From assembly GCA_049472215.1 (NCBI GenBank), contig JBLIRH010000002.1, positions 23,815-87,814 of the forward strand: a DNA stretch of 64,000 bases, given 5' to 3'. The position numbers and the translations under genes were made by a program. Below are positions 12,732 through 57,479 of this stretch, piece by piece. Every line of letters starts with the position of its first letter. Position 1 is the first letter of the stretch. The stretch is from Thermoplasmatota archaeon (GTDB taxonomy: Archaea; Thermoplasmatota; Penumbrarchaeia; Penumbrarchaeales; Penumbrarchaeaceae). The notes under the pieces were generated by a model, which was not told where the DNA came from, ran no database searches, and worked only from the letters and a program-made list of their open reading frames with translations.

Positions 12732-12774
12732 TCCGACTCCGGTATCGTCCCTATCGGATCACCCCTAGGATCAT

Positions 12775-28120: not shown

Positions 28121-30076
28121 CTACTGGAAGCTTACACCGCAGCTCGGGCAGGATGCAGCATCCTCTTCTATGACCGCACTGCAGTTTGGACATTCCAAAG
28201 CCAGTTCGAACTCCGCACCGCAGTTGCTGCACCTCGAATCGTAGGGTCCGAGGGGGGCGCTGCACTCGGGACAGACGTCGCCGATCTCCTCCTCTGTCCG
28301 CTCCATTTCGTCAATGAGAAGCTCGAGGTCCTGGACCTCCTGCATCTCGGATTCCTCGGGAAGCCCCATGAGGTCCTTTGATGCGGCGGGAAAGGCCGAT
28401 TCCTCGATCTCGTCCATCAGGTCTTCATCGAACTCGTCCTCGAGGTCTTCCTCGTATTCTTCTGCAAGCGACGGAGCCATCTCCGGCACCATAGGTGCTT
28501 CCAGGGGTCCTTCATCGAACTCCTCGGGTGGCTGCGGGGCAAGTTCCTCCGGTATCTCCTCCTCTGCTTCGCCTCCGCGCATGACATAGAACACCACGGC
28601 CCCCACTATCGCGAGGATCACCACGATGATCAGTATTATCATCCAGACCGGAGGTCCGTCGGTCCCCTCGCTCTCGGTGACCTCTATCGTGATCTGTGAC
28701 TGGTCCGTTCCACCTTCACCGTCGGTGACGACCACTGTGAACGTATACGTGCCCGGTTCGAAATCGCCGAGGTCAACGATCACGGTCGATGTGCTGCCCG
28801 TCCATCCGGTGTTCGGGGTGACGGACCACGCATACGCAAGAGTGTCGCTGTCGGCATCGGATGCAGCCACCGTGAATTCAAGGTCCTTGTTCTTTGGTAT
28901 CCTTGTGGCAGAGGGTGAGATGTCATGAATGACAGGATGATGGTTCGTCACACCGGAATCGTACGGGTCAGTATCCTGGTCGTTCGGAATACCGTCACCG
29001 TCAATGTCCCCGTCGTTGTCCGTGAAGAGACCGTCACCGTCGATATCCAGCTCCACAACTTCGCCCATCGTTGGCGGAAGTTGTCCTGAGTAAGCAAGCT
29101 GCGAAGCCAAAATGGTCACCCAATCGGAGCTGGGTTGCCCGGGATCGATCGTACCCGTGATGTACTTGACCATGTCAAGGGTGAACTGTCCGCCGCCGCT
29201 GCCGATCGCCCTTATCACGGGATTCACTATCGTGGCATCCAGAGGGGCCTCGATAACGGCAACTATGGATCCGCCGGAGGATCTATATTTAACGCCATGG
29301 TCGGATGTTTTGAAGTCAGAAGCTCTTGTTCCGGAACCGAACAGCATCGAGCCCCCGTATTCAATATCGAGATCGGCGTTGGTGCCTGTGAGCTCGAAGA
29401 GATAGAACTCGAAATCGGCATCGATCACGAGATATGGATACGGAAACGGAGCGACGGAGTACCTGTTCGATGGACCGACGGTCTCCGTCTGTTCGTCGGA
29501 TACCTGAAGATTGATCGCCTCCGTCCCCATCTTTACGCCGGGGGTCGTCGGGGCGTTGAAATCAAGTGTTATCGTTATCCCTTCGCTGATACCGAGGTTC
29601 TCGTTATGGTCGAGGGCATCATCGATGTTTCCAGCAACATCGTACTGGGCGGAACCTCCGAAGACCCTGCCGGGCAGATCGTCCCTGGCATAGACCTTCG
29701 CAACATCCTCGCTTGTCTTGGAAAAGTCCCATTCATGTGTGAAAAGGGGGTCGAACCACTCAGCTGTGGCATTCAGGACCTCGCCGCCCGGGATGGTGAT
29801 GTAGACCGTGTCAATATCATTATCCTGGTCGTTGTTCGTTACCGTGAAATCGAGGCTGGCCTCCTGACCGGCACCGAATATCAGCAGGTCAGAAGGGAAC
29901 TCGGGAATGGCAAGGTGCCCCTGGTTCCTCTCCATCACCACGGTGAAATCGTCCTGACCGAAATCGTGACCTACCGTGCCGTGGGGCCTGTCAAGATATG
30001 CAACCGCCCCGAAGGCGGCAAAGAACAGCACCGCGGCAATGCCGACGATCAGCTTCTCCCTAAGTTTCCCATCCAT
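28121..30076 (-). CDS. Type I membrane protein with a PKD-containing ectodomain, a TM helix, an acidic cytoplasmic linker and a C-terminal double zinc ribbon
   Basis: 651 aa with a signal/anchor (LIVGIAAVLFFAAFGAVAYL), a Ca-binding-like DIDGDGLFTDNDGDIDGDGIPNDQD and a PKD-like TLAYAWSVTPNTGW...TFTVVVTDGEGG. The TM helix is VWMIILIIVVILAIVGAVVFYV, followed by a Glu/Asp-rich ~90 aa. The C-terminus is CPECSAPLGPYDSRCSNCGAEFELALECPNCSAVIEEDAASCPSCG (four CxxC pairs). Confidence 0.7.
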   Translation of the reverse strand: MDGKLREKLIVGIAAVLFFAAFGAVAYLDRPHGTVGHDFGQDDFTVVMERNQGHLAIPEFPSDLLIFGAGQEASLDFTVTNNDQDNDIDTVYITIPGGEVLNATAEWFDPLFTHEWDFSKTSEDVAKVYARDDLPGRVFGGSAQYDVAGNIDDALDHNENLGISEGITITLDFNAPTTPGVKMGTEAINLQVSDEQTETVGPSNRYSVAPFPYPYLVIDADFEFYLFELTGTNADLDIEYGGSMLFGSGTRASDFKTSDHGVKYRSSGGSIVAVIEAPLDATIVNPVIRAIGSGGGQFTLDMVKYITGTIDPGQPSSDWVTILASQLAYSGQLPPTMGEVVELDIDGDGLFTDNDGDIDGDGIPNDQDTDPYDSGVTNHHPVIHDISPSATRIPKNKDLEFTVAASDADSDTLAYAWSVTPNTGWTGSTSTVIVDLGDFEPGTYTFTVVVTDGEGGTDQSQITIEVTESEGTDGPPVWMIILIIVVILAIVGAVVFYVMRGGEAEEEIPEELAPQPPEEFDEGPLEAPMVPEMAPSLAEEYEEDLEDEFDEDLMDEIEESAFPAASKDLMGLPEESEMQEVQDLELLIDEMERTEEEIGDVCPECSAPLGPYDSRCSNCGAEFELALECPNCSAVIEEDAASCPSCGVSFQ

Positions 30077-37892: not shown

Positions 37893-38240
37893 TTACCTCT
37901 TGCAGGACATCCTTCCCTGCTCAACCATATCCTCGGCATACCCGAGCCGGCCGGCCTCCTTTATCCTTCTCAGGCTCTCGTTCCTGTTGGAGCGAAGGAC
38001 GAAGGAAATGGTCCTCGCAAAGAAATTGTTCAGCTTTGCGCAATCCTTCGGATCAGAGAATTCGGCACAATCGGCACAGGTGGAATACCCGTGCTCCATG
38101 TTGCACGTTCTCACCTGGCACCAGGTCGCCTTCTCGTTCTTGGCACAACCCGGACACCTGCCGTTCTTGAACTTGCCGCATTCGCCGCAGTAGAGCCCGC
38201 AGAATGCAACAAGATCGGCGTTCGCTAATTTCTCGGCCAT
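37893..38240 (-). CDS. Cys-rich DUF3795-like protein
   Basis: FCGLYCGECGKFKNGRCPGCAKNEKATWCQVRTCNMEHGYSTCADCAEF matches the DUF3795 cysteine pattern. Confidence 0.6.
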   Translation of the reverse strand: MAEKLANADLVAFCGLYCGECGKFKNGRCPGCAKNEKATWCQVRTCNMEHGYSTCADCAEFSDPKDCAKLNNFFARTISFVLRSNRNESLRRIKEAGRLGYAEDMVEQGRMSCKR

Positions 38241-39257: not shown

Positions 39258-40556
39258 TCACTTCTCGACGATCTTCACCATGTGGGTGGCACATGAGATG
39301 CAAGGATCATATGCCCTTGCGATGAGCTCCATCTTGTTTCGGAGCTCCTGCTTTTCCAGCCCCTGGTCGCTGAGGAGCTTTCCGACCTTCTTCATGTCCT
39401 GGTCGATGATCAGATTGTTGATAGCGGTGGGGGTGATGATATTGGCATCGGTTATCATGCCTTCTTTGTCGATCCAATATTCATGATAGAGCGTCCCCCT
39501 GGGGACCTCCAGCGAACCTATTCCATGGCTCTCCCTGGGCTCCACCTTCATGGGCTTCTCATCCTTTATCCCCAGATACAGCAATCTGTCGATGAGCTCC
39601 ATCGCGCGTTCCCAGGCATAGATACACTCAAAGGCCTGGCCCAGGTTGTTGTGAAGTATGTTGTTCGATGGGAACGGGAAGAAGATATCCTTCGCCTCGA
39701 GGATGTGGGGGTGCCTGAACTCCTTCATGATGTTGAGCCTGGAAAGCGATCCCACCATCACGGCGTCCCCCCCGGAGGTCTTGCTCACCTTCGCTGTGGA
39801 CCATGGGATGATCTCCTCCTTGATCACCTTCCGGTAATCGGAGAGAGGGAACCTCCTGTCGTCAAGTGCGATCATGTCGCCCATCAACGTGAACTCGTCA
39901 TTTTCGGAGGAGACGAGCGTGGAATACGGAGCTGTCAGCTCCATCTCCGAGGGATACGACAACGATGAGAACAACCTGTAGGCCTCGACAGTATCCTTCA
40001 CGTTCTCCCTGAGCTTGTCTCGAAGCTCCACGAGCTTCCTTCTCGATGGGATCCCAGTGAAACCTCCGATTATCGGTTTCTCGGGATGTATCGGCCTGCC
40101 GCCGATGAGCTCCTGGATGTCGTTCCCGATCCCCTTCAGCTTCAGCGCCCTGTTGACCTCGACGGGATGGTCCTTGTAGAGGGCTATCGCGTTGGGCATC
40201 CCGAGATAGTCCGGCAGCGCAAGGAAATATGTGTGGAGATAGTGGCTCTCAAGGATCGATCCCATGTGTATGAGCTCCCTTAGAAGCTCCGTCTGCTCCG
40301 AAACCTCGACCTCGAATGCCTGCTCGATCGCTTTTATCGATGCAAGCTTGTGGGAAACGGTGCATATGGCGCATATCCTGGTCACTATGGAGGGAACATG
40401 CCTGAAGTATTTGCCCCGGACCAGGACCTCGAAGAACCTGGGACCCTCGGTGATCGAGAAATTTACATCCTTTATCCGGTCACCGTCGAATTCCAGGAAT
40501 ATCTCCCCGTGCCCTTCGACCCTGGCGACCGGCTCTATCTCTACGTACTTCTTCAC
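39258..40556 (-). CDS. [NiFe]-hydrogenase large (catalytic) subunit, group 3-like
   Basis: 432 aa. The N-terminal ARVEGHGEI and RICAICTVSH (nt 40350..40379) and the C-terminal DPCISCATH (nt 39282..39308, checked on the DNA) supply both CxxC pairs that ligate Ni-Fe. Only 7 aa (MVKIVEK) follow the His. The GTG start overlaps the upstream stop (GTGA). Confidence 0.9.
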   Translation of the reverse strand: MKKYVEIEPVARVEGHGEIFLEFDGDRIKDVNFSITEGPRFFEVLVRGKYFRHVPSIVTRICAICTVSHKLASIKAIEQAFEVEVSEQTELLRELIHMGSILESHYLHTYFLALPDYLGMPNAIALYKDHPVEVNRALKLKGIGNDIQELIGGRPIHPEKPIIGGFTGIPSRRKLVELRDKLRENVKDTVEAYRLFSSLSYPSEMELTAPYSTLVSSENDEFTLMGDMIALDDRRFPLSDYRKVIKEEIIPWSTAKVSKTSGGDAVMVGSLSRLNIMKEFRHPHILEAKDIFFPFPSNNILHNNLGQAFECIYAWERAMELIDRLLYLGIKDEKPMKVEPRESHGIGSLEVPRGTLYHEYWIDKEGMITDANIITPTAINNLIIDQDMKKVGKLLSDQGLEKQELRNKMELIARAYDPCISCATHMVKIVEK

Positions 40557-41245
40557 TGGTCATCCCTCCTTGATCCGGCAAGATGCTCCATGACCTTCTT
40601 TCCTTCCTCGGAGTAGGAGAAGAGCTTGATCAGATCGATCACGTGGTCGAGGTTGATCCCGTACTTCGTGTAATCCCTGACCGCGAACTTGATGAGGTCC
40701 TCGTGGAATACGACCCCCCTGCAGCCGATACAGGTCGAACCGTTCCTCGTGCAGTAAGCGTTGCACCCGGAATATGTGAGAGGTCCGAGACAGATGTTTC
40801 CCCGGTAAAGGTTGCAGGATTCTCCCTGAAGTGGACACATAGCGCATACGACCGTTGCTGACAGGTCAAGGTCCCTGCAGAGAGGAACATACGGGCAATC
40901 TCCCGATGTCGGGCAGTCCCGGCAGCTCTGCTCGTGCTGGGACATTGTCAGCTGAAGGATCGTCCTCCTGAGATCGTAGAGCTTCCTCGAATTGGTATGG
41001 ATGATCATGTTCTCCCTGATGGGGGTCTGGCAGGATTCCCTGATGATCTTCGACTTCCCCTCCCCCAGTTCCACCAAGCACATCCTGCAGTTCCCGGTGT
41101 TCAATTTCCCGAGCACCGGATTGTAGCAGATGTGGGGAAGCTCCACTCCCCTCTCAATGCAAAGCTGCAGTATGGTCTGGCCGGGTTTCCCGAAATACTC
41201 CTTGCCGTCAATGACCACCCTCACCTTCTTCTCCACCATCGTCAT
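40553..41245 (-). CDS. HoxU/NuoG-N-terminal-like Fe-S protein fused to the medial/distal-cluster half of a group 3 [NiFe] small subunit
   Basis: 230 aa. The [2Fe-2S] motif is C40..C53xxC56..C72 (HICYNP...GNCRMC...ESC). The His-ligated [4Fe-4S] is HEQSCRDCPTSGDC (Hx3Cx2Cx5C). Then follows VCAMCPLQGESCNLYRGNICLGPLTYSGCNAYCTRNGSTCIGCRG, with 8 Cys in the CLGPxTxxGCxAxC...CxGCxG pattern of MvhG/FrhG/sulfhydrogenase-delta C-termini. Confidence 0.8.
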   Translation of the reverse strand: MTMVEKKVRVVIDGKEYFGKPGQTILQLCIERGVELPHICYNPVLGKLNTGNCRMCLVELGEGKSKIIRESCQTPIRENMIIHTNSRKLYDLRRTILQLTMSQHEQSCRDCPTSGDCPYVPLCRDLDLSATVVCAMCPLQGESCNLYRGNICLGPLTYSGCNAYCTRNGSTCIGCRGVVFHEDLIKFAVRDYTKYGINLDHVIDLIKLFSYSEEGKKVMEHLAGSRRDDQ

Positions 41246-42988
41246 CTACTCCACCTCCTCGACGGGCTTGTCGAAGGGGCCCATCCTTTCAAGCTCCTTG
41301 TAGAGCCTGGCTTTCAGGATCTGGTTCGACCAGTGGATAGCTCCCTGATTGTAGTTCTTCATCCTATTGATGCGGTCCTCGATGACACTTGGGTCCGTAT
41401 TGGGATACTGACCGCCTCCGGTGATGCACCCCTTCAGGCACGGAATGAACTCCACGAAATCGTAATCCTCGATATTGGAGAGAACATTGTCCGCATTGGT
41501 CAGGTCGGTCACCGTCGCGACCTTGAAATGAACGTCGGGATAGTCAACGGTCCTAACCACGGTCCCATCCTCGAGAACGATCTTCTGAAGCACATTCTGC
41601 CTTACCTTCAGGGCCATGGTGTAGTCCACGACCTCGTCCCCGAGCCCATCGGTCGCAGGCGTATCCGCAAGGATATCGATCAACGGCTCCGTCATGACGA
41701 ACCTGTCGAAGGAGACCGTTTCGATATCGCAGAGGTCGACGTTGATGCGGTTCTTCTGGATCAGCCTCGAGACCTCCTTGGTGGAGATCACAGCATCGAA
41801 GTCCGCCATCTTCTTCATGGCAGTGCACGGAGTGATCATTGCCAGGAAAACGGGCCCGTACCTCTTCTCGATCATCTCCCTGGCGATCGGGCCTGGTCTC
41901 GCTTCAAGATCGAGATAGTCCTTGTACTCGAATTTGTGCTTGGTGATCCAGATGTTGGCGGAGGGGCACCACGACATGATCTTGGTCCTTCCCGGATCGT
42001 CCAGCGAATCCTGGACCGTCTTGAATATCGACACATGCTGGGCTGCGGCGAAGTTGAAGACCTTCCACATGCCGAGCTGCTTCAGAGCGACGATGACCTT
42101 CCTCATGAGGGCGTGGGTGTTGTCAGGTTCATCGACCTGAAGGTTCTCAGAAAGTGAGGCCAGGATCATGGGATCGACCAGGGCGACCACGCGCTCTCCG
42201 CTTTTCAGGGCGTTCTCGAGCTTCTTGATGTTGTGTTCCCTCTCCTTCAGGGCCCCGCAGAAGCAGAACTGCACGCACTGGCCGCATGAGATGCAGGTCG
42301 TCCTAGCAAAGGTCGACCCGAAGGGGGTCGAGACCCTTTCCTTCCAGTTCCTGCCCACCATGGAGATCGCCTTTACCCCGAGTCCCTCGTCGCAGACATT
42401 GACGCATCTCCGGCAGGATATGCACTTCTCGGGCAGATAGTTGACCACGGGGTCCTTGATCTCCTCAACATCATCCGGTAACTGCCTGTCGATGGGCAGG
42501 GGGAGCGTCACGTTCTTATGGGGGTCCATGGTAGCGAACTTCTGGAAGTAGTAGATGACCTCGGACTCCCTGACGGGGCAGCCCCTTATGGTGTAATCGA
42601 CCTCTATGAAATAGTCCAGGGGATACGCCTTCTTCAGCGGCGTGGTATTGATCATGGTGGTCCCGTAGACCGCCTTGTAAGCTTCGGAGGCTCCCTGTAT
42701 GTCCTTTCCCGTGGCAACCCCGCCGGATGCAGCGCAGGTCCCTATCCCCACCACCCTTCTCGAGTTCTTCCTGATGTGGTGGAGGACCTCGATATCCTCC
42801 TCGGTCACCACCGCACCTTCCACGAAGGCTATGTCAAGCATCCCGAAATCCTGCCCCGAGGAGGCCATGGAGAATACCCTGATGTCAAGGGATTCGAAGA
42901 TCTCCAGAAGCTCCTCCTCGCAGTTGAGAATGGCCAGCTGGTCGCCGGCGCAGGAAGTGAGACCGAATATGCCGACCTTCACCTTCAT
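41246..42988 (-). CDS. Fusion protein of a [NiFe] small-subunit proximal-cluster domain, a 2x[4Fe-4S] ferredoxin and an [FeFe]-hydrogenase H-domain (with its small-subunit-like C-terminus)
   Basis: ORF 41246..43114 trimmed to the ATG at 42988, which forms an ATGA overlap with the NuoF-like stop. The first ~155 aa (MKVKVGIFGLTSCAGDQ...GIGTCAASGG...IRGCPV) are the Oxidored_q6-type small subunit. CISCRRCVNVCDE and CISCGQCVQFCFC follow. The last ~330 aa align along their length to clostridial HydA (LKQLGMWKVFNF / MSWCPSANIW / ITPCTAMKK / DAVISTKEVSRLI / EFIPCLKGCITGGGQ / RINRMKNYNQ). Confidence 0.8.
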   Translation of the reverse strand: MKVKVGIFGLTSCAGDQLAILNCEEELLEIFESLDIRVFSMASSGQDFGMLDIAFVEGAVVTEEDIEVLHHIRKNSRRVVGIGTCAASGGVATGKDIQGASEAYKAVYGTTMINTTPLKKAYPLDYFIEVDYTIRGCPVRESEVIYYFQKFATMDPHKNVTLPLPIDRQLPDDVEEIKDPVVNYLPEKCISCRRCVNVCDEGLGVKAISMVGRNWKERVSTPFGSTFARTTCISCGQCVQFCFCGALKEREHNIKKLENALKSGERVVALVDPMILASLSENLQVDEPDNTHALMRKVIVALKQLGMWKVFNFAAAQHVSIFKTVQDSLDDPGRTKIMSWCPSANIWITKHKFEYKDYLDLEARPGPIAREMIEKRYGPVFLAMITPCTAMKKMADFDAVISTKEVSRLIQKNRINVDLCDIETVSFDRFVMTEPLIDILADTPATDGLGDEVVDYTMALKVRQNVLQKIVLEDGTVVRTVDYPDVHFKVATVTDLTNADNVLSNIEDYDFVEFIPCLKGCITGGGQYPNTDPSVIEDRINRMKNYNQGAIHWSNQILKARLYKELERMGPFDKPVEEVE

Positions 42989-44283
42989 GACCTGCCACCT
43001 CCCATGGGACAGACCTTTGAAGGGCACTCTCCGCGGATATGAGAGTCGAAGACCTCCCTGAAATTGTTGTAGGCGGAGGAGAATGGGGTGGAAGCCGTCT
43101 TTCCAAGGCCGCAAATTGAAGCGGTGTCCATGACACCGGAGATCTCCATCGCCCGCTCAAGCTCCCCGTCCTTGGCTTTGCCCGTTCTCAACCTCTCCAA
43201 TATCCTTGATACGTGATGGGTCCCGGTCCTGCAGGGCGTACACTTTCCACAGCTCTCGTGTGAGAAGAAACCCATGAGATTGTGAGCGATATCAACAACG
43301 CAGCTCTTCTCGTTGAAGACCACGATCACCCCCGATCCCAGGGTGAGGCCGTCGGCCTCCGCATCCTCCATGGAGAACTTCGTCTCCAACCTCTCTTTGG
43401 GTATCAGCGAACCGGATGCGCCCCCGAGGAGCACGAAACCGATCTCCTTTCCGTCCACCCCGCCGCCGAGGTCGTTGATGATATCCATCAACGTGCATTT
43501 ACCCATTTCAACCTCGTAGGCACCTGGAGACTTGACATGCCCCGTCAGGGAAACGATCCTCGTCCCCGTCGATTGGGTTGTTCCTATTGACCTGTAATTG
43601 TCCCCGCCCTCCATGATGATGTAGGGGACGTTGGCAAGGGTCTCAACGTTGTTGACACAGGTGGGTTTATCGAACACACCCGAGACCGAGGTCCTTGTTA
43701 TCTTTATCTTGGCCTGGCCGGCCATCCCCTCGATGGATTGGAGGATCGCGGAAGATTCACCGCAGACATATGCCCCTGCACCCTTTACGACCTCGATCTC
43801 CAGATCGAAGTTCTTTCCAAGGATCCCCTTACCGAGAAGGTTGCGGTCCTTTGCCGTCTGAATGATGGACCTGAGCTTTGGGGGAAGGAAAGGGTATTCC
43901 CCGCGATTGTAGATGAAGGCCTTTTCGATGCCCATCGCATAGGCCGCGATCGTCATTCCCTCGATCAGGAGGAATGGGTCCGTCTCCACCAGCGTCCTGT
44001 CCTTAATAGTGCCCTCCTCGCCCTCGTCGAAGTTTGCAATGAGGTACTTCGGTGTTTTGTTCTGCATGGCCACTGATTCCCATTTGAAGCCGGCGTGGAA
44101 CCCGGCCCCTCCCCTTCCCCTGATGCGGGATTTCGAGACCTCGTTCACGACCCACCTTGAACCTTTATCAAGGGCTTTCTTCAATGCCTCGTAACCGCCC
44201 GCGCTGATGTAATGGTCGATGTTCCACCCGTCGTAACCGCCCCTTCCACGGTTCTTCAAGAGGATCCTGGTTTCCTGGACCAA
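42985..44283 (-). CDS. NuoF/HoxF/HydB-like NAD(P)H-binding FMN and [4Fe-4S] subunit
   Basis: GRGGAGFHAGFKWE is the FMN site. ANFDEGEEGTIKDR, GAGAYVCGESSAILQSIEG, ESCGKCTPCRTG and ICGLG supply the N3-type cluster. The TTG start abuts the upstream TGA. Confidence 0.9.
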   Translation of the reverse strand: MVQETRILLKNRGRGGYDGWNIDHYISAGGYEALKKALDKGSRWVVNEVSKSRIRGRGGAGFHAGFKWESVAMQNKTPKYLIANFDEGEEGTIKDRTLVETDPFLLIEGMTIAAYAMGIEKAFIYNRGEYPFLPPKLRSIIQTAKDRNLLGKGILGKNFDLEIEVVKGAGAYVCGESSAILQSIEGMAGQAKIKITRTSVSGVFDKPTCVNNVETLANVPYIIMEGGDNYRSIGTTQSTGTRIVSLTGHVKSPGAYEVEMGKCTLMDIINDLGGGVDGKEIGFVLLGGASGSLIPKERLETKFSMEDAEADGLTLGSGVIVVFNEKSCVVDIAHNLMGFFSHESCGKCTPCRTGTHHVSRILERLRTGKAKDGELERAMEISGVMDTASICGLGKTASTPFSSAYNNFREVFDSHIRGECPSKVCPMGGGRS

Positions 44284-44763
44284 TCACTCACCCCCCTTTC
44301 TCAGATCCTCGATCAGCTGGATCGCCTTTCCAATGTCCAGGTTGCGGTGGACGTCGTGATCGATCATCATGGCAGGTGACCCATCACACTGGCCGATGCA
44401 CGAGCTTTCCTCCAAAGTGAACAAGCCGTCGGCCGTGGTCTCTCCCTCCTTTATGGATAGGTGACCGCTGATGCCTGCCATGAGGTCCTTCGATCCCTTG
44501 CCGTGGCAGACGACACCGCGGCATAGCCTGATGACATGCTTTCCTTCCGCTTTCAATGTGAATTGTTCATAGAAGGTGACTACCGAATATATCCGCGTCA
44601 AGGGGATCTCAAGAGCATCTGCGATGTACCTTGCTGTCTCCCAGGTGATGCAGCCCCATGTCTCCTGGATCTTGTGAAGAAGAAAAAGCACTGGGGAATC
44701 GAGTCCCTTCGCCTCAGCCAGCAATCCGTCCAGAACCTTTATGTCCTTGACCCCGATCACCAT
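44284..44763 (-). CDS. NuoE/HoxE/HydC-like thioredoxin-fold [2Fe-2S] subunit
   Basis: 159 aa. IRLCRGVVCHGKGS ... ESSCIGQCDGSPAMMID gives the Cx4C...Cx3C pattern of NuoE-type [2Fe-2S] proteins. Confidence 0.85.
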   Translation of the reverse strand: MVIGVKDIKVLDGLLAEAKGLDSPVLFLLHKIQETWGCITWETARYIADALEIPLTRIYSVVTFYEQFTLKAEGKHVIRLCRGVVCHGKGSKDLMAGISGHLSIKEGETTADGLFTLEESSCIGQCDGSPAMMIDHDVHRNLDIGKAIQLIEDLRKGGE

Positions 44764-44847: not shown

Positions 44848-45957
44848 TTAGCATATCCTTGGGACCGGATCCCCGTAGGGCGGGTCCATGATCCGCTTTC
44901 CGCCTACGACCGTCTGAAGGATCACGTTCTTCCCCTCGGGCCCCACGATCCCGATCACTGCGGCATCCTTACCCGCCTCCGTCCTTCTTATCGCTTTGAG
45001 GACCTCATCCTCGCTTCCCGGAGCAACGGCGAGGATGACCTTGCCCTCGTTCCCTATCTCGAAGGGATCGAACCCGAGCATGTCGCAGGCACTCGAGACA
45101 GCTTCCTTTACGGGGATATCGGATTCCCTGACCAGGATAGAGCACCCGCTCTTGGAGCACCATTCGTTCAATCCGTTGGCCAGCCCGCCCCTTGTCAGGT
45201 CCTTGGCGGCAATAACGCCTCCTACGTCCAAGGCGGCCTCGATCACTTCCCCCATCGGAGCGAGGTCGGAGACCAGGTCGGTTTCGAAACCGTAGCCCTC
45301 CCTGAACGAGAGCAGGGATATTCCATGGTCCCCCACGGACCCGGAAAGAATGATGATGTCCCCTTCCCGGACCGCATCGTCCCTCAGCCATCGGGAAACA
45401 GGTGATCTGGCCCCCCGCTTCGATCTAAGCTCTGATGCTCGTTCGAAGTTCCGTTGCAGAGCCGGATGCATCTCTCCGATACCGGCAGTGGTTATGACCA
45501 TCCCCTTCACCCCTCCCTTCTCCACGACCTTCGTGTCCCCCGTTACCACGGTTACATGGGCCCTTTCAGAAGCAATTCCGATCGACCCCGAGATCCTGCG
45601 GAGGAGTTCTTTATCGGTCCCTTCCTCGATCACCATCGATAGTGCGAGGGCTTTAGGCCTTGCCCCGACGACCCAGAGGTCATTCACAGTTCCAAAGACC
45701 GAGAGGGACCCAATATCCCCCCCGGGGAATTCGAGAGGCCATACGGTATGACCGTCGATGGTAAAGGCGACATTATCAATGACGGCGGAATCGTCCAGGA
45801 GTTCCGGCGGGACCCCTTCCCGGTCTTCGCCTCCCGATGACCTTCTAACGAAGGGGATCACGAGCTCCTTCAGCATCCTCTGCATCAGCTCGCCTCCTGC
45901 GCCCTCGCCGATCTTGACCTTCCTGTCACCGTTCATAAGTGGCCCCAAAAAGCTCAT
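44848..45957 (-). CDS. hypE: [NiFe]-hydrogenase maturation protein HypE (carbamoyl dehydratase)
   Basis: It has an AIR-synthase-like fold and the diagnostic C-terminus ...PPYGDPVPRIC. The N-terminal IGEGAGGELMQRML resembles the E. coli HGSGGQAMQQLI. The start is ATG 45957 or 45936. The ORF-track GTG at 45996 lies inside the upstream gene. Confidence 0.85.
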   Translation of the reverse strand: MSFLGPLMNGDRKVKIGEGAGGELMQRMLKELVIPFVRRSSGGEDREGVPPELLDDSAVIDNVAFTIDGHTVWPLEFPGGDIGSLSVFGTVNDLWVVGARPKALALSMVIEEGTDKELLRRISGSIGIASERAHVTVVTGDTKVVEKGGVKGMVITTAGIGEMHPALQRNFERASELRSKRGARSPVSRWLRDDAVREGDIIILSGSVGDHGISLLSFREGYGFETDLVSDLAPMGEVIEAALDVGGVIAAKDLTRGGLANGLNEWCSKSGCSILVRESDIPVKEAVSSACDMLGFDPFEIGNEGKVILAVAPGSEDEVLKAIRRTEAGKDAAVIGIVGPEGKNVILQTVVGGKRIMDPPYGDPVPRIC

Positions 45958-45967
45958 GTGGAACTGA

Positions 45968-48900
45968 CTAATCACCTTTGCGGTCCCTTCTGACACGGAA
46001 CGTGAAGAAGAGGTAGCCGCCGAGGCCGATCAGCGCTATCGCCGATACTATTGAGATAACTATTATCATCATGCGCTCACCGGAGGAGCGTCCACCATTG
46101 GAAACGATCCTGAACATATCCGAGATGTTCATCGTTCCACCATAGGTCCCGTTGAGGGTCTGGGCCTCTATCTCCAGAGCGATCAGGAGCTCTTCATCGA
46201 GTTTGAGACCTTCGGGCAGCTCTATCGTGATCCGTCCGTTCGACCTTGGTCCGATCATTATGTTCCTCTCTCCGGGAAGGGACATCGTCCCGACCTCGCC
46301 TGTGATCGTGAAACGAAGGATCAGGGGACTGTCGTTCTCGAGGGTTATCTCAAGATACGGTATCTCGGTGTCTATATTTCTTTCAGGTTCGGAGAAGACC
46401 GCCCTCCATGGCATATCGCCCCAGCCCCAGAGGGAGACAATAACATAGATCGTATCGAAGACAACATTACCTGCCCGGTCCTCAACTTTCAGGTCGATCC
46501 TGTGCTCCCCGGGGCTCAGGTCCCTTACCGTTCTCATTATCGACTGGGTGCTGATATGGATCACACCATCCTTGTCCGATGTCCATGTGACGTTCAATAT
46601 GTCGCCGTTTGGCATGTCAGGATCATACCCGGATGCCTCGAAGACGATCAGTGATCCCGGAAGAAGAACGCTTCCGTTCACCGGCTGAACGATGGAAACG
46701 TCTCGGGGAGGGTCTTCGACGGGCTCGACGATCACTCCGATAAGGTAGAATGCTTTCTCTTCGCCGTCCGATACGGAGATCTGAACATATCCTTCCCCCG
46801 CCTGGTCCTCCTCCGGCACTATCCAGAGGAGCCCGTCAGCGATCGTAGCCTTGAAGGGGAAGTATTCGGTGATGGCGAACATGAGCTCGTCCCCGTCTGG
46901 GTCCTCGAAATCATTCAAAAGGTCGCTGTACAAGGGACCTTCGTCCTCCACCATGTAAAGCACAAGTTCGCTGCCCCCGAAGATCGGCCTTTGATTGTTG
47001 TGGGCGGTGGTTCCGAAGATTATCCCGGACAGTTCGGACACGGGGCCGTCATCATCGACCGAGGCCATGACATATTCGTAGGTCGTGTTATCCGAAAGGC
47101 CCATGTCCTCATAGAACGGGACCGATCTGGAGAGCCTTGTTATCTCCTTGAAATCCTCATCCCCGGGATCCCTCCGATAGATGATATATCCCCAGATATC
47201 CTGGGTGAGAGGGGGGTCCCATTCGATGACAAGCGTGTTATTGCCGCGGGCCCTTGCCTCGATGTTCCTCGGGGGGCCGGGGGGTATGATGTCCACTGGG
47301 ATTCCCTTTATGATATCCGTACTATCCGAGGTCGATCCGGCATGATCAATGGAGACCATCCGGAACGAATACTCCTCACCGTTCTGGAGGCCCCTCACGA
47401 TGATGGCGTTGTCAGGATAGTAGACGATTATCGGATTGAATTCAGTCTGTCCCTTTTTCACGTAGATCAAGGCCCGGTACAGGTCCTCCCCTACCCAATC
47501 CCATTCCAGGGAGATGGCCTTGCCCTCGGGGATCGGTTCCAGCCTGAAGTTCCCCGGGGGGAGGGGTTTCTGGTCCACGTCCACCTGTGTAGTATTGCTC
47601 CACCCCTTCGATCCTACATCATTGTATGCCCTGACCCTGAAATACTGCGTGGTGTTCTCGTTCCCGTACACAGGCAAGAATGCATCCCGGGTGGACCAGG
47701 AAACGAGCTTCGATGAGAAATCCTTCGAGTTCGAACGCTGTACGATATATCTAGATCCTTCATCCGTCCAGCTGAGGTCCACCCTGTCAGATCCCCTCTC
47801 GTAACTGGATCCCAATTTTGGTATGTCCGGCATATCCCAGTACCTGTCCATCATGAGGGGGTAGGGATCACGTGCAAGAAAGGGGATGTCGGTATCTCCG
47901 ATGCCGTCACCCGGCTTTCGACCGTTGGAGCCGTCATCTTCTCCGGTGTATGAATCGTAATAATTGCCCTCGAGGGAAGTGGAGTTGTACCAGGTGGAGA
48001 GGGGGGGGCCGGTTGCCACCTTCTCGTTGTCGATGAAGGAGTTGTAGAATATCCGGGAATCCTCGCCCTCGTCGATCGCCTCCTTGTTACCTATGAACCT
48101 GCTGCGGGTGATGATGGAGTTGAACGGGTCTTCAAGTCCCTTGTCGCAATCGATGAACTCGGAATCCCTGACGACGCCGTTCGAGAGGTCCTTCACCGTC
48201 ACCATGTTCCTGAATGTGCTTCCGTGGATGGTCGATGTACTGGTGGAGGAAAGCTCAATTCGCCCCCCCTCTACCTGCGTATCTATCAAAGATAGATTCT
48301 GTGAAGATACCAATTGAATTGAATTATTGATGAGCCTGGAATCAATTAAAGTGACCTTGTCGATCCTGACATCCAATCCCACGGTACAATTCGATACGGA
48401 AAAGCTCTTGTAGACATTCCTGCCCAGCAGTATCGCACCCTTGCCGTAGTTGGATATCGAGACCCTGGTCATCGGCGTTGAGTAAAAGGGGATTATCGCG
48501 GTTCCCGTTCCGCTGCCCTTCATATCCAACCCATCTATCGCCGACCCCCATTCCATGTTCTTAATTGTGCAGTTCAACATTCGCACATCTTCGAATTCCA
48601 GCTTTCCCCATGTGAGATCGAAACCTTGGATGTAGGAGCGGTTGATGGTAAGGGAGGATGGCACATTCCTTACACCCTGAAGAGCGATCGTTGACGAGGG
48701 GGCCCCAGACGGCAAGAACAATATGCGGGAGCTGTCATCGGGGGTGTCAGCATCGCCGTCGAGATCGGTCGCGTTGAGATACCCATAGTTCAGTATCCCG
48801 ACATCTTTCATCATAAGAGAGGAATTTATCAGGGAAATATGGCCGCCGTTCGTGATACCGATATTCTCAACGACCACCGTTGAGTTCTTGATCGTGAGGT

Positions 48901-49105
48901 GATCGATCACTCCGATACCCTGACCGCAAAGAACCGATAGGTTCTCCCAGGTGACCGGGCCGGTCGATGCATTCACCATGAAGGTTTCGTTGAACTCGAG
49001 ATCGTATCCCGACCATGTTCGTCCCTGTACCGAACCCGTTGGTTCTAACTGGGGGACCGAAACCAGCAGAATGAGGGATAACAGCACTATACGAACTCTT
49101 TCCAC
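45968..49105 (-). CDS. Giant cell-surface protein with a right-handed beta-helix, two FN3 domains, cadherin/Ig-like modules and a C-terminal TM anchor
   Basis: 1045 aa with a signal peptide (IVLLSLILLVSVPQLEP) and beta-helix repeats in the N-terminal half. FN3 units are PPGNFRLEPIPEGKAISLEWDW...YSFRMVSIDHAG and PPRNIEARARGNNTLVIEWDPP...YEYVMASVDDDG. The TM helix is MMIIVISIVSAIALIGLGGYLFF, followed by RVRRDRKGD. Confidence 0.7.
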   Translation of the reverse strand: MERVRIVLLSLILLVSVPQLEPTGSVQGRTWSGYDLEFNETFMVNASTGPVTWENLSVLCGQGIGVIDHLTIKNSTVVVENIGITNGGHISLINSSLMMKDVGILNYGYLNATDLDGDADTPDDSSRILFLPSGAPSSTIALQGVRNVPSSLTINRSYIQGFDLTWGKLEFEDVRMLNCTIKNMEWGSAIDGLDMKGSGTGTAIIPFYSTPMTRVSISNYGKGAILLGRNVYKSFSVSNCTVGLDVRIDKVTLIDSRLINNSIQLVSSQNLSLIDTQVEGGRIELSSTSTSTIHGSTFRNMVTVKDLSNGVVRDSEFIDCDKGLEDPFNSIITRSRFIGNKEAIDEGEDSRIFYNSFIDNEKVATGPPLSTWYNSTSLEGNYYDSYTGEDDGSNGRKPGDGIGDTDIPFLARDPYPLMMDRYWDMPDIPKLGSSYERGSDRVDLSWTDEGSRYIVQRSNSKDFSSKLVSWSTRDAFLPVYGNENTTQYFRVRAYNDVGSKGWSNTTQVDVDQKPLPPGNFRLEPIPEGKAISLEWDWVGEDLYRALIYVKKGQTEFNPIIVYYPDNAIIVRGLQNGEEYSFRMVSIDHAGSTSDSTDIIKGIPVDIIPPGPPRNIEARARGNNTLVIEWDPPLTQDIWGYIIYRRDPGDEDFKEITRLSRSVPFYEDMGLSDNTTYEYVMASVDDDGPVSELSGIIFGTTAHNNQRPIFGGSELVLYMVEDEGPLYSDLLNDFEDPDGDELMFAITEYFPFKATIADGLLWIVPEEDQAGEGYVQISVSDGEEKAFYLIGVIVEPVEDPPRDVSIVQPVNGSVLLPGSLIVFEASGYDPDMPNGDILNVTWTSDKDGVIHISTQSIMRTVRDLSPGEHRIDLKVEDRAGNVVFDTIYVIVSLWGWGDMPWRAVFSEPERNIDTEIPYLEITLENDSPLILRFTITGEVGTMSLPGERNIMIGPRSNGRITIELPEGLKLDEELLIALEIEAQTLNGTYGGTMNISDMFRIVSNGGRSSGERMMIIVISIVSAIALIGLGGYLFFTFRVRRDRKGD

Positions 49106-49529: not shown

Positions 49530-50993
49530 TCATGGACCGGGAGTGGGTTTTCTACCCCTTCTTCCCGAGATCATAAGGACGGCGAAAAGTAAGACCATTA
49601 TTGTCCCGGCCGAACAACCAACGATCAGCCAGAAACCATTTCCGGGGCCTTCTTTCTTGTTCTGGTCAGGTTCGACCGGAACATCATCGTCGACAGCGTC
49701 CCCCTTATCGAATGCCACTGGGTATTCGTCCGTGGCATTCGCGATACCGTCGATGATATAGGGGTCGTCAACGATGCTGTCGTTGTCATGATCCGGGCCC
49801 CAGTGGTCGGACCAGAGGTTCCCTTCGGTCCCTTCGTACCAGCTGTTGGACTCCCCGTTGTCCATAGCCTGGAAACCCTTCGGGCCGTTATCGTAGAATC
49901 TATTTGCATAGACCATGTTATGCCTGGATGGAGGACCCCTCCCCAGCCATGTGTCGATGGTGACAGCATGCCACGTTCCGTTGGAGAAAACGTTATGATG
50001 GACCATCGCTCCATCGGTCGAATCGAGGTACACGGCGTTCTCGTTCCCTTCGAAGTCCGAACCGGTTATTGCGATGCCGCTGGAATCGCTCAGGAACACA
50101 CCATATGTGTTCTTGTAGAAATTGCATTTCGATATGATAGAATCTGATGCAGCGGAGAGCTGGATGCCGTTGGTGTTGTAACGGATCGAGGTCTCCTCGA
50201 TCGAGGAGTTGGCGATACTCATCATGAATATGCCGTTGTTGTTCGTATCTATGTAGGACCTCGCTATCCTTATCCCGCTGGAAACGATCGACCCGTTCGA
50301 GGTCTCAGAAATTATTCCGAAGCCGTAGTTCAAGGTTGTAGTAGTGTCTATTATTTCCACCTCGCTGGAATCGACCAGATGTATTCCGGCTGTGAGTCCC
50401 AATATGGCTGTGTTCGATTCTGCTATAACGCTGCTGATGGTCACGTTACGGGACATGTTCACCAATATCCCGTTCTCCACGTTGACCTTGCAGAGGACCC
50501 TTTCTATGGAAATGCTCCTGCCCTGGACATATACCCCATCGTAGGAGCCGAAGAAACCCGAATCACCGATCCAGATGCCTGAACAGTTTCGGACCTCGAC
50601 CCCCCTAGTGCAGTAATATGTCGCCACGTTCCTGACCCTGACATTGGTGGAGTTCTCGATAAGGATGCCCGGGTGCTTTGGGAGTTTCCCGTTCACGAAA
50701 AGGTTGTAATCCACCACCACGTGTCTTGTAGAGTTCCTGATGACCACCCCCGGGGAGGTCGTGGTATTGAACCAGAAACCGGAGATCAAGTACGGATCGT
50801 CCAAGGTTCCGTTGCCGGTCACTCCCTCAGGAAGCTCCCCTGTGAAATTTGAATCGTTGATATGGATAGGGCCGTGGAGCTTCAATAATGGACCCTCGTC
50901 ATCCTGTCCGGAAACGATGCCATGGAACGATAGGATGATAACCAATGAGAACAAGGCCAGCAGAGATCTAGAAAGTTTGCCCATTGATCGCAC
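49530..50993 (-). CDS. Surface-anchored right-handed beta-helix protein (NosD/PbH1-repeat type)
   Basis: 487 aa with a signal peptide (LLALFSLVIILSFHGIVSG). It has about 10 PbH1-like repeats (VRNVATYYCTRGVEV, ISKCNFYKNTYGVFL, ITGSDFEGNENAVYL, VHHNVFSNGTWHAVTI) and a TM helix (FWLIVGCSAGTIMVLLFAVLMI). Confidence 0.7.
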   Translation of the reverse strand: MRSMGKLSRSLLALFSLVIILSFHGIVSGQDDEGPLLKLHGPIHINDSNFTGELPEGVTGNGTLDDPYLISGFWFNTTTSPGVVIRNSTRHVVVDYNLFVNGKLPKHPGILIENSTNVRVRNVATYYCTRGVEVRNCSGIWIGDSGFFGSYDGVYVQGRSISIERVLCKVNVENGILVNMSRNVTISSVIAESNTAILGLTAGIHLVDSSEVEIIDTTTTLNYGFGIISETSNGSIVSSGIRIARSYIDTNNNGIFMMSIANSSIEETSIRYNTNGIQLSAASDSIISKCNFYKNTYGVFLSDSSGIAITGSDFEGNENAVYLDSTDGAMVHHNVFSNGTWHAVTIDTWLGRGPPSRHNMVYANRFYDNGPKGFQAMDNGESNSWYEGTEGNLWSDHWGPDHDNDSIVDDPYIIDGIANATDEYPVAFDKGDAVDDDVPVEPDQNKKEGPGNGFWLIVGCSAGTIMVLLFAVLMISGRRGRKPTPGP

Positions 50994-53011: not shown

Positions 53012-55570
53012 TCATCTTCTGTCGACCGGCTGGAACCTGGGAGCGGACTGCGGCGGAGCGCCGCCGCCCCCGTAAGAGTACTGCACCGGATACTGTGTTT
53101 GTCTCGGAGGTTCCCTCTTCCTCCTGGACCTGGATATCATGAACCCGGACAGGGCCAGAAGAATGAATACCAGGAGAATTACCAGGAATATGATGGCTGT
53201 CGGACCTATGCCTGTCTGCCTTCCCTTGACATCCGTGGAGGAGGATGGTATGTCGATGATCAGCTGAACGGTGGCAGTATCGGTCCCGCCTCCGTAATCG
53301 TATACGGTCACCTGGATCTGGTAGGTGCCGTTCTCGAGATCGGTGACAGACGGAAGCTCAAGGGTGAACTCCAGATCGTCAGCGGCAACATCCGGGTCCA
53401 CGCCGTCGTTCAGCATCTCGATCCCCGAGCCGCCGCCGATGGACCTCAGATCGGCAATGACGATCTCGATGTCACCGAGGCCGTCGGGGTCCTCTATGAG
53501 CGCGTAGAGTATGATCCGCTCTCCGGAGGTGTTCGAATTGATAACCCCTGGCTCCACCGATACGAGGCTGATGACCGGCGGGGAGTTGATCGACTCCTCC
53601 CTCACATCGATCTCCAGCGACCTCGAATCGGTGCCCCCTTTGCCATCCAGGACGGTCACGGTAACCCTGTCCATCACGGGCTGGGAGGGGGCCTGGTAGA
53701 TCACCTCGTCCCCGGTTCCCTCGATCGTTCCCCTTTCGGCATCGTAATCGTACTCGAGTTCGTCCCCGTCCTGATCTATTGCGACGACCCGGAGGTTGGT
53801 GGTCCCATCGACCGTGAGCACGTTCTTGCCGGCCTTGAACGAGGTGATCACCGGGGGTCTGTTCGGGAGACCCTCCTGGACCATGACGAAGGTGGAGGCC
53901 GTATCCCTGCCTCCGGAAGGGTCCGAAACGGCCAGATTGAAGTAATATTTTCCGGGTTCGGAGGGTGCTTTCCAATCCCACAGGGGGCCTTCCCCTGTCA
54001 GTGTACCGTCGTCCACCGTCAAAGAATATGTAAGCGGCTCCTCGTCGATATCGGCTGCGACGGCCCTCACCCTGCAGGTGGATCCCGCAGTCGTAACATT
54101 GGGTTCGACGGCGAAATACGTTATCTCGGGCCTGTGATTGACGGGGACATAGGTCAATGACGTCTTCACCGCGTTGTAAGCGTCCAGCATTCCATAGCCA
54201 TACTGGGTATTATAAGTTGGAGAAAGGTCCCTGTCATAGGGCTCTCCCCTGGCCTCGGACGTCTGATGAAGTATCATCGAGATGTGGTTGGTCCTGTCCG
54301 TAGGTGCCAGAGAGGACTTTGCCTGAAGCATCAGTGCAACCGTTCCCGAAACATGTGGCGTCGCATAGGAGGTCCCGGACCCGGTCGACCATCCGCTGGC
54401 CCCCTGGAGCCGCGAAGTCCTGGAGGATGAAGCGAAGGATATTCCTACACCCGGGGCAACGACATCGGGCCTCATCTCGTCATAGGGATTGGTGTCTCCG
54501 TCATCGGTCCTCGGTCCGTAGGTTGAAGAGGCCCAGTACTCGTCATCGGACCTGTCGATCGTGTCCTGGTCGCTCACCGCCCCCACGACTATCGACCGGT
54601 CCGCCCAGGTCGTTCCCGCACCGGATGCGTACTGGGACCCTGAATTTCCCGCTCCCTGGACCACGACGATCCCCTGCACGGTAAGCTCGTCCATTGCCTG
54701 CACTACAGCACCATTATTGTTTCCCACACCGAGGCTCAATGATACTATGTCGACACCTGTGTAACCCGTGTCGCCCCAAACGGTCTCCCTGTTGTCCGAG
54801 CACCATTGGAAGGCATCCATGAGGCTGTTCTGGTTGAGGGTGATGCCGCTCTGGCCTATTATCTTGATATCGATAAGGCCCGCTGCGGGCGCCACCCCTT
54901 TATGGGACCCGTCCGCGTCACCCCTCCCAAGGGCGATCGAAGCGACCCCGGTCCCGTGCCCCGTCCTGTCGTCCGGATCGAAGCTTCCGTCGTCGGGATT
55001 GAGGGGGGTGTTAATCGGTGCTGTAAAATCGACCCCGGCCACGAAGGCGTCCTGGAATGTTGGATGCTCGTTATCGACACCAGTATCCAGGACCGCAATG
55101 GTGACTCCTCTTCCGGTCATCCCGAGTTCCCTGGCGGTCCTCGGGCTGTACTCGTCTGACGGATTCGCCTTTATCGCCGCTGTGGAAACGTCCATCAACG
55201 TTCTGACAGTATCCTGCTTCTCGATCCTGACGATACCTGGTATTGATAATGTCGATTCCAGTTCTTCGAATGAATCATATCTGACCGAGATCACCGGAAC
55301 GATGTCATAGGCGTTCCATACCTCGCCTCCCTTCAAGGTGATGGCTTCGGATGCTCCCTCGATATATGACCGGTCTCGAAAATGAACAAATGTCCAGGCC
55401 GGATAGGTTGCTATATATTGATTGCTGAGCTCCATGTCGATATCGATGATGCGAAGGCCGGGGAAGAGATTGGAACTTTCATCATTTCTACCCGATACGT
55501 GGAGAAGACCCGCCATGCTGAGCATCATCACGAAAAGGATCGGCATCACGAACTTCCTTGCACCGGACAT
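53012..55570 (-). CDS. Membrane-anchored subtilisin-like serine protease (peptidase S8) with Ig/PKD-like repeats
   Basis: The catalytic triad blocks are TIAVLDTGVDNEHP (Asp), GHGTGVASIA (His) and GSGTSYATPHVSGTVALM (Ser). Four Ig-like repeats follow (e.g. LTYSLTVDDGTLTGEG, LEYDYDAERGTIEGTG). The TM helix is AIIFLVILLVFILLALSGFMI, with a cytoplasmic tail. Confidence 0.85.
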   Translation of the reverse strand: MSGARKFVMPILFVMMLSMAGLLHVSGRNDESSNLFPGLRIIDIDMELSNQYIATYPAWTFVHFRDRSYIEGASEAITLKGGEVWNAYDIVPVISVRYDSFEELESTLSIPGIVRIEKQDTVRTLMDVSTAAIKANPSDEYSPRTARELGMTGRGVTIAVLDTGVDNEHPTFQDAFVAGVDFTAPINTPLNPDDGSFDPDDRTGHGTGVASIALGRGDADGSHKGVAPAAGLIDIKIIGQSGITLNQNSLMDAFQWCSDNRETVWGDTGYTGVDIVSLSLGVGNNNGAVVQAMDELTVQGIVVVQGAGNSGSQYASGAGTTWADRSIVVGAVSDQDTIDRSDDEYWASSTYGPRTDDGDTNPYDEMRPDVVAPGVGISFASSSRTSRLQGASGWSTGSGTSYATPHVSGTVALMLQAKSSLAPTDRTNHISMILHQTSEARGEPYDRDLSPTYNTQYGYGMLDAYNAVKTSLTYVPVNHRPEITYFAVEPNVTTAGSTCRVRAVAADIDEEPLTYSLTVDDGTLTGEGPLWDWKAPSEPGKYYFNLAVSDPSGGRDTASTFVMVQEGLPNRPPVITSFKAGKNVLTVDGTTNLRVVAIDQDGDELEYDYDAERGTIEGTGDEVIYQAPSQPVMDRVTVTVLDGKGGTDSRSLEIDVREESINSPPVISLVSVEPGVINSNTSGERIILYALIEDPDGLGDIEIVIADLRSIGGGSGIEMLNDGVDPDVAADDLEFTLELPSVTDLENGTYQIQVTVYDYGGGTDTATVQLIIDIPSSSTDVKGRQTGIGPTAIIFLVILLVFILLALSGFMISRSRRKREPPRQTQYPVQYSYGGGGAPPQSAPRFQPVDRR

Positions 55571-56936: not shown

Positions 56937-57479
56937 ATGCCGCGCTGGGATGTCCACCTTAGCTTCGGTTTAATGGCGTTCATAGTCATATTCTCAGCTC
57001 TGCTCATGGGTTCCAGCGACGGGCGCTCCCTTGAAGGATATGCTCGCGCAGCTGTATTGTTCGGCATCGTAGGGCTGCTTGGAGGAGGCGCCCTGGTCTT
57101 CGGGTCGGTCCTTCCGGACATCGACGGGAAGGGGAAGGTCCGGTGGATGGTGGGTCCTGCCGTCGGCGCTCTGCTTTTCGTACCACCCCTTATCGGAACC
57201 TTCAGGAGCGGGGGGCCGAGCGGAGCAATGGAGTTTATCGAGGGAACAGGATCGCTTCTCTTCCTTCTGGGAACTGTTGTCGGTTATCTGCTTCTGCTCG
57301 TTCCCACGAGGCACAGGGGAATACTGCATAGCAAATGGACCTGCGCAGCATACGGAAGCGTCTGGGGAGTATACGTCTTCTACACCGCATCCATGGCGTT
57401 CGATCAGTCCATGATGATAGGCTCGATGGGAGCTCTGGGGTATGGATGGCACCTGGCCCTTGACGGCAGGTTACTCTAG
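56937..57479 (+). CDS. Polytopic membrane protein (possibly a DUF457-type membrane-bound hydrolase)
   Basis: 180 aa with five or six hydrophobic helices. His residues lie near the N-terminus (WDVHLSFG) and the C-terminus (GWHLALDG). Confidence 0.4.
   Translation: MPRWDVHLSFGLMAFIVIFSALLMGSSDGRSLEGYARAAVLFGIVGLLGGGALVFGSVLPDIDGKGKVRWMVGPAVGALLFVPPLIGTFRSGGPSGAMEFIEGTGSLLFLLGTVVGYLLLLVPTRHRGILHSKWTCAAYGSVWGVYVFYTASMAFDQSMMIGSMGALGYGWHLALDGRLL

Follow-up and report, generated by a model that had tools for sequence, protein, structure and literature searches.

The window analysed here, a 64,000-nucleotide stretch of contig JBLIRH010000002.1 from a Thermoplasmatota archaeon, carries five tightly packed minus-strand genes, hydC-hydB-fusion-hydD-hyhL (44763 to 39258 in the list of open reading frames, ORFs), the central one of which joins parts of a [NiFe] and an [FeFe] hydrogenase. 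By its architecture, its genes and its cofactor ligands, this locus very probably encodes a group F [FeFe]/group 3f [NiFe] hybrid hydrogenase: the five genes would be co-translated into a soluble complex with two H2-activating sites on one NAD(H)/flavin mononucleotide (FMN) module. Group F [FeFe] hydrogenases have been defined by the fusion of an N-terminal HyhS and a C-terminal HydA (Greening et al., Cell 2024, PMC11216029), contiguous with HyhL, HydB, HydC and a four-cluster 'conduit' protein called HydD. The same study reported hybrid hydrogenases from 21 genomes, among them Thermoplasmata but also other archaea, and proposed to name their components group F/G [FeFe] and group 3f/3g [NiFe] (PMC11216029). 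The window locus has the same fused domains, contiguous genes for HyhL, HydB, HydC and HydD, the four H-cluster cysteines and an archaeal host. A previous interpretation of the same DNA made without database searches (hereafter, the sequence-only reading) stated that no hydrogenase was known in which the subunit that wires the NiFe site is joined to an [FeFe] catalytic (H) domain. This statement was outdated, as the same fusion and the same five-gene cluster are found in PMC11216029. The fusion architecture was thus already described in 2024, and the window locus is a further example of it, not a discovery.

Hybrid hydrogenases place both of the main H2-activating catalysts on one electron wire, and they bear on the co-evolution of [NiFe] hydrogenases, [FeFe] hydrogenases and complex I modules, as well as on the redox balance of uncultured anaerobic archaea. 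That significance is due to the 2024 discovery (PMC11216029). The window locus contributes a Thermoplasmatota case that is well assembled and has a minimal diaphorase, it shows plainly how the small subunit is split, and it may be the simplest version for heterologous or structural work, although it raises no new question on its own. What is added beyond the published account is modest, namely an explicit description of the swap that splits the small subunit and an operon type with a short HydB.

The fusion protein and its relatives

The fusion ORF was listed at 41246..43114 on the minus strand, with a TTG start and 622 amino acids (aa), and the sequence-only reading was numbered accordingly. 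Yet, an ATG at 42988 (residue 43 of that track) overlaps the hydB stop codon as ATGA and has a GGAGGTG 7 nucleotides (nt) upstream. Because of this overlap and this preceding element, the ATG is most likely the actual start, which gives a protein of 580 aa (MKVKVGIFGLTSC...) whose numbering is used below. Pfam detects Oxidored_q6 at residues 13-149 (1.5e-21), Fer4 at 186-246 and Fe_hyd_lg_C at 266-525 (1.2e-22). In sequence searches of the PDB, residues 2-165 match the delta subunit of Pyrococcus furiosus sulfhydrogenase I (SHI; 3e-26), residues 175-540 match HydA from Thermotoga maritima (2e-32) and HydA1 from Thermoanaerobacter kivui (2.4e-32), and residues 186-538 match the [FeFe] hydrogenase CpI (~7e-21). 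The AlphaFold2 model of the whole fusion has a mean predicted local distance difference test score (pLDDT) of 67.7, poor in the N-domain and between 80 and 96 across most of the H-domain. Its top Foldseek matches are all [FeFe] hydrogenases (T. maritima HydA, 7p5h_A, 1.5e-19; T. kivui HydA1; CpI, ~1e-16). The N-domain (residues 1-170), modelled separately with a deeper alignment (pLDDT 76), matches SHI delta (9e1j_A, 1.5e-13, template modelling score 0.70), then MvhG, Acetomicrobium mobile HydS, HoxY and FrhG.

Sequence and structure searches thus agree with the sequence-only reading that a single polypeptide combines a domain from a group-3 [NiFe] small subunit with two ferredoxin-type clusters and with a true H-domain, and the folds retrieved with the two models are those it had anticipated. 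The block-by-block correspondence that it proposed between the H-domain and CpI is reproduced by HMMER, which aligns SWCP with SCCP, PCTAMKK with PCTSKK and EFIPCLKGCITGGGQ with EVMACHGGCVNGGGQ. Its identification of the N-terminal domain as a small subunit of the sulfhydrogenase delta type stands as to identity, but only the proximal-cluster half is found on the fusion, the rest being on HydD. Since the 2x[4Fe-4S] block (residues 186-246) aligns to CpI from residue 144 and to T. maritima HydA from residue 130, it is assigned by sequence to the ferredoxin (F) domain of the [FeFe] hydrogenase.

Fifteen cysteines are invariant in the alignments of the fusion family. The proximal cluster has C13, C85, C137 and D16 as its ligands; the fourth of these positions is an aspartate in the clade of the window fusion and a cysteine in some distant members. 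Counting Asp16, the three sets of [4Fe-4S] ligands on the fusion are complete. Asp16 was considered as a special feature and then dropped, as it is ordinary for this branch, the nearest free-standing small subunits conserving it to at least 90%. The ligands of the ferredoxin clusters (C189/192/195/199 and C232/235/238/242) are all invariant, and so are the GGGQ motif and the four H-cluster ligands, C341, C388, C517 and C521, which HMMER aligns to CpI C300, C355, C499 and C503. The H-domain motifs read SWC341P (L1), PC388TAMKK (L2) and PC517LKGC521ITGGGQ (L3), and L1 and L2 therefore deviate from the group A prototype signature (TSCCPxW and MPCxxKxxE, respectively). The fusion scores 119.8 bits with TIGR02512, the cut-off of which is 405.95, and every NCBIfam [FeFe] model remains far under its cut-off (145 vs 765 bits). 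All of the nearest relatives retrieved are fusions, and the bacterial group A enzymes are 21-27% identical to the window protein; an identity to classical HydA of about 21-25% is common to it and the published group F/3f hybrids.

The fusion sequence is identical to NCBI MGA1792471.1 ('MAG: Thermoplasmatota archaeon'), a deposit from a 93-kb contig of a metagenome-assembled genome (MAG), newer than the published hybrids. About 14 protein clusters from the NCBI, JGI, ENA and Logan assemblies contain sequences of 576-581 aa that are 73-100% identical to it, and the gene is a single unbroken ORF of 578-580 aa in each of four Thermoplasmatota/Thermoplasmatales MAG loci (L001-L004). One possibility is that two separate genes were joined artificially by an assembly error or a frameshift, a risk to which MAG contigs are generically exposed and which the sequence-only reading had raised. 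Nevertheless, no interruption is seen in the window ORF or in those of L001-L004, the same 576-581-aa ORF recurs in at least 14 independent clusters, relatives at ~30% identity are also fused, and the inter-domain linker is conserved and under purifying selection. An artefact is therefore extremely improbable and was rejected; in the related loci examined, the genes are fused and not split. In pairwise comparisons with L001, L002 and L004, the ratio of nonsynonymous to synonymous substitution rates (dN/dS) lies between 0.02 and 0.17 in the small-subunit, ferredoxin and H-domains alike, a sign of strong purifying selection on all of them; dS is saturated for L003 and some L004 segments. The H-domain is not decaying. 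The family is rare: an exhaustive search among 1.84 billion cluster representatives retrieved 20 representatives at E <= 1e-30. Searching with the profile of a diverse group F alignment, on candidates preselected with a word index, yielded no fusion proteins beyond those already in the cluster search.

HydD and the split small subunit

The remaining part of the small subunit is found on the protein encoded next to the fusion. Residues 6-123 of HydD match the N-terminus of NuoG and HydA, which bears a [2Fe-2S] and a His-ligated [4Fe-4S] cluster (7t2r_A, 1.7e-17), and residues 132-222 (nt 40580-40852) match residues 162-255 of SHI delta (9nez_A, 3.8e-13, improving to 7.6e-14 when the C-terminal part is searched alone). 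The C-terminal ~95 aa contain 8 cysteines, all of them aligned to the medial/distal-cluster domain of group-3 small subunits. The NCBIfam profiles divide along the same border: sulfhyd_HydD (261 positions) covers its positions 5-168 on the fusion and 165-248 on HydD, and FeFe_hydrog_A6 covers 138-529 on the fusion and 1-121 on HydD. The [NiFe] small subunit is therefore split between the fusion (proximal half) and HydD (medial/distal half), and the HydD N-terminus corresponds, by sequence, to the piece of an M3-type HydA that is absent from the fusion. Because their profile coverage is complementary, the fusion and HydD look like a pair of reciprocal chimeras, their parents being an M3-type HydA and a group-3 small subunit. 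The two-part architecture of HydD is kept in all the group F loci examined. The main text of PMC11216029 calls HydD NuoG-like, and its methods use MvhG (5ODC chain E) as the HydD template; in view of that template, the authors were at least implicitly aware of the small-subunit part of HydD.

HydABC from T. maritima and T. kivui (7P5H, 8A6T; group A3) has NuoE/NuoF partners and is the top match of the F- and H-domains in sequence as well as in fold. Yet, its HydA is one M3-type chain (2Fe2S-His4Fe4S-2x4Fe4S-H) with a TSCCP motif, whereas in the window HydD bears the N-terminal third, its place on the fusion is taken by a NiFe small-subunit domain and L1 reads SWCP. P. furiosus SHI (group 3b; 9NEZ/9E1J) is the best match for HyhL and for each half of the small subunit (the fusion half aligns to delta residues 2-163 and the HydD half to 162-255), but its delta subunit is one chain, its beta/gamma partners are sulfite-reductase-like, use NADPH and are not NuoEFG-like, and it has no H-domain. 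In A. mobile NiFe-HydABCSL (7T2R/7T30), a NiFe large and small subunit are wired to a NuoE/F/G-like module, the HydA N-terminus resembles that of HydD (1.7e-17) and the small subunit resembles the N-domain of the fusion (2.5e-14). In contrast to the window proteins, its small subunit is free (179 aa), its HydB has 597 aa with extra cluster domains and its subunit A matches the fusion, in the PDB sequence search, only in the ferredoxin block (residues 176-253); this enzyme is without a true H-cluster subunit (PMC11216029).

The large subunit, HyhL, has the motifs RICAICTVSH and DPCISCATH. It is closest to group 3b, with a full-length match to SHI alpha (1e-74) ahead of HoxH (5xf9_D, 3e-45), and its matches to the NCBIfam ShyA/HydA alpha models are under the cut-off. 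HoxEFUYH and HoxFUYH (group 3d; 5XF9) are soluble NAD(H)-linked [NiFe] enzymes with a NuoE/F/G-type diaphorase, and are the favored functional analogy. Nevertheless, their HoxU and HoxY are unsplit and they have no H-cluster arm. The window enzyme falls outside group 3d, given a HyhL that is nearer to SHI alpha and a small subunit that is split over two chimeric proteins.

Proposed electron paths, bifurcation and the activity of the H-domain

Since the fusion and HydD are apparently reciprocal chimeras, they would probably interlock, so that the small subunit around HyhL and the M3-type HydA would each be rebuilt in full. Judging by the aligned ligands, electrons from the NiFe site would pass through the proximal, medial and distal clusters to the N-terminal clusters of HydD, and those from the H-cluster would reach the HydD N-terminal His-[4Fe-4S] and [2Fe-2S] clusters by way of FS4A and FS4B. 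From there, the common path would lead to the [4Fe-4S] cluster of HydB, FMN and NAD(H), with HydC adding an off-path [2Fe-2S] cluster. H2 evolution may be favored in the H-cluster arm, and H2 uptake in the NiFe arm.

HydB occurs in two forms, which go with different gene orders. In the first operon type, found in the window, L001-L004 and L009, hydC and a short hydB (413-432 aa) precede fusion-hydD-hyhL. In the second (L005-L007 and the partial copies L010 and L011), the order is fusion, hydC, long hydB, hydD, hyhL, and hycI follows hyhL in L005/L006. The long HydB of L005-L007 and L012 has ~1050 aa, including a GltD-like extension of ~600 aa (Fer4_20 + Pyr_redox_2). The published hybrids share with the window the HyhS-HydA fusion, the partner genes, a Thermoplasmatota host and HydEFG that are not nearby, but UBA147, like L005-L007 and L012, has a HydB with a glutamate-synthase-like domain and the window differs by its gene order and short HydB. 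The published five-subunit model, built for Thermoplasmatota UBA147 with a second arm modelled on the 7MFM template (PMC11216029), uses a glutamate-synthase template for HydB and corresponds to the long-hydB operon type. In the window, Pfam and the PDB sequence search detect no N-terminal [2Fe-2S] domain, C-terminal 2x[4Fe-4S] domain or GltD-like domain in HydB. The protein (432 aa) thus has neither the Fer4_20 and Pyr_redox_2 domains of the UBA147 type nor the terminal cluster domains of the Bfu type. It covers only the core of the bifurcating HydB chains (8a6t_B 148-570/630, 7p5h_B 160-566/626, 7t2r_B 116-537/597). As HydB is without the extra cluster and flavin domains of the matched bifurcating chains and of the long-HydB loci, the favored reading of the short-HydB operon is that it encodes a non-bifurcating, NAD(H)-linked, bidirectional enzyme that would act as a Hox-like redox valve. 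A role as redox valve has also been proposed in PMC11216029.

Several points weigh against a non-bifurcating enzyme with two working sites. As to bifurcation, it was the mechanism proposed for a relative, UBA147 (PMC11216029), and ferredoxin may possibly dock at the N-terminal domain of HydD. With the same architecture, the complex could then be electron-bifurcating/confurcating, NADH and reduced ferredoxin being converted to or from H2 via a ferredoxin site on HydD. The NuoE/NuoF/NuoG-like trio is indeed common to Bfu-type HydABC and NiFe-HydABCSL, and the best PDB matches of HydB (9bov_B, 8a6t_B, 7t2r_B) are to bifurcating enzymes. Yet, the window HydB ends with the NuoF core and lacks both the terminal cluster domains of these matched chains and the ~600-aa GltD-like extension on which the published second arm is modelled, and bifurcation by the window enzyme seems rather unlikely, if worth serious attention.

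The other unfavorable points concern the H-domain. The position of the proton-relay cysteine (CpI C299) is occupied by a tryptophan, conserved to 90% or more in an alignment of 11 diverse members of the family, and CpI K358 aligns to a methionine, with a lysine one residue further (L2 PCTAMKK). E279 and E282 are not conserved, and the Glu/Ser/Arg proton pathway is not recognisable in the HMMER alignment. Pfam detected no HydE, HydF or HydG among the scanned ORFs of the 64-kb window (39 ORFs, drawn from the 76 that reach 150 aa and one shorter ORF, besides the six operon proteins, with the small ORFs covered in part). This agrees with the published absence of HydEFG from most archaea with hybrid hydrogenase genes (PMC11216029), and it argues against taking the loading of [2Fe]H in vivo for granted. 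The same scan found no HycI, no GltD-like protein and no Hyp protein other than HypE.

The H-domain could thus hold only the [4Fe-4S] subcluster in vivo, or nothing, and be an electron-transfer, structural or H2/redox-sensing module, with the NiFe site as sole catalyst. Such a role would fit the missing maturation genes, the family-wide tryptophan and the unconserved proton pathway, as in putative sensory [FeFe] hydrogenases, and also the reduced H-domains of shortened relatives such as P0017. Nevertheless, the four H-cluster cysteines and GGGQ are invariant, dN/dS is equally low in the H-domain and in the small-subunit domain, and one of two artificially matured Thermoplasmata SG8-5 group F fusions (Th1) made H2, with ~5% of the activity of CrHydA1 (PMC11216029). 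A non-catalytic H-domain is accordingly judged unlikely, slightly more so than bifurcation, and two H2-activating sites on one NAD(H)-linked module remain the preferred reading.

It is tentatively suggested, as a conjecture less likely to be right than wrong, that the short-HydB operon type is a distinct non-bifurcating NAD(H)-linked subtype, not explicitly described before, in which the fusion and HydD are reciprocal chimeras that must interlock. If true, the interlocked chimeras would give a defined evolutionary event behind the hybrid, in the form of one reciprocal exchange or of an insertion into hyhS.

Locus layout, divergent relatives and the rest of the window

The coordinates of the operon, its domains and other features are collected in Table 1. 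The hypE gene lies directly upstream of hydC on the same strand. The order hypE-hydC-hydB-fusion-hydD-hyhL is kept in L001, L002 and L004, and the same core order is found in L009; L003 is a shorter contig that only contains the end of hydB, the fusion, hydD and part of hyhL. An archaeal TATA-box-like element, TTTTAATAA, stands ~36 nt 5' of the hydC ATG and is the putative promoter of the operon. The gene downstream of hyhL runs convergent. Some 1 kb past hyhL, and on its strand, lies a gene for a small, Cys-rich DUF3795 protein (37893-38240, minus).

Table 1 Features of the hybrid hydrogenase locus, of related loci and of the window (window positions unless a locus is named)
Feature	Position	Strand	Description
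hypE	44848..45996	-	[NiFe] maturation protein; NCBIfam TIGR02124 2.4e-100, above cut-off
Putative operon promoter, TTTTAATAA	44795..44803	-	archaeal TATA-box-like; read directly from the sequence
hydC	44284..44763	-	159 aa; NuoE/HoxE-like thioredoxin-fold [2Fe-2S] subunit; Pfam 2Fe-2S_thioredx 1.8e-42; NCBIfam NuoE/HoxE matches
hydB	42985..44283	-	432 aa; bare NuoF-type FMN/NAD(H) diaphorase with one [4Fe-4S]; Pfam Complex1_51K, SLBB and NADH_4Fe-4S only
hyhS(N)-hydA fusion gene	41246..42988	-	580 aa
Small-subunit proximal-cluster domain, fusion residues 1-165	42494..42988	-	SHI delta residues 2-163, 3e-26
2x[4Fe-4S] ferredoxin (F) domain, fusion residues 181-250	42239..42448	-	Pfam Fer4_7; aligns to the F-domain of CpI and T. 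maritima HydA
[FeFe] H-domain, fusion residues 255-545	41354..42226	-	Pfam Fe_hyd_lg_C; HMMER alignments to CpI and T. maritima HydA
hydD	40553..41245	-	230-aa iron-sulfur protein
hyhL	39258..40556	-	432 aa; group-3 [NiFe] large subunit; Pfam NiFeSe_Hases
Long hydB genes	L005 7883-11029; L007 3559-6708; L012 8218-11409		
Genes for large predicted secreted or surface proteins	3817-6258, 15699-18353, 24650-26833, 28121-30076, 45968-49105, 49530-50993, 53012-55570, 57471-61832		

Some relatives of the fusion are more divergent. Locus L012 (CAZSNS010000043.1, genes 3595-13280) encodes a distant fusion of 573 aa (P0028) with a phenylalanine at the second proximal-ligand position and SFCPS in L1. 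An HdrA/FlpD-like gene precedes this fusion, and an HdrD-like gene (Fer4 + CCG) follows hydD in the place of the large subunit. By its gene content, L012 may be a hybrid-derived complex that lost its NiFe partner. Shorter relatives of 430-520 aa were also found (P0017 from L005/L006, 6001-7431; P0026, P0030, P0032, P0034-P0037, P0039, P0041, P0044 and P0128). They have retained the small-subunit domain, both ferredoxin clusters and a C..C..GGG motif resembling L3, with ~60-120 residues of the H-domain gone. A simple pattern search recognises L1 or L2 in only some of them, and Pfam does not detect Fe_hyd_lg_C in P0017.

Besides the fusion, the window bears other archaeal signs, a class I LysRS and a geranylgeranyl reductase, and ARAGORN found no tRNA genes in its 64 kb. 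A KaiC-like ATPase gene is followed by two adjacent DUF7090/DUF7504 genes at 9523-11582. The window is unusually dense in genes for very large proteins of 651-1453 aa that are predicted to be secreted or at the surface; they have PKD, Big_9, fn3, NosD/beta-helix and CARDB domains and include two subtilases, and this set suggests an extracellular protein-degrading lifestyle.

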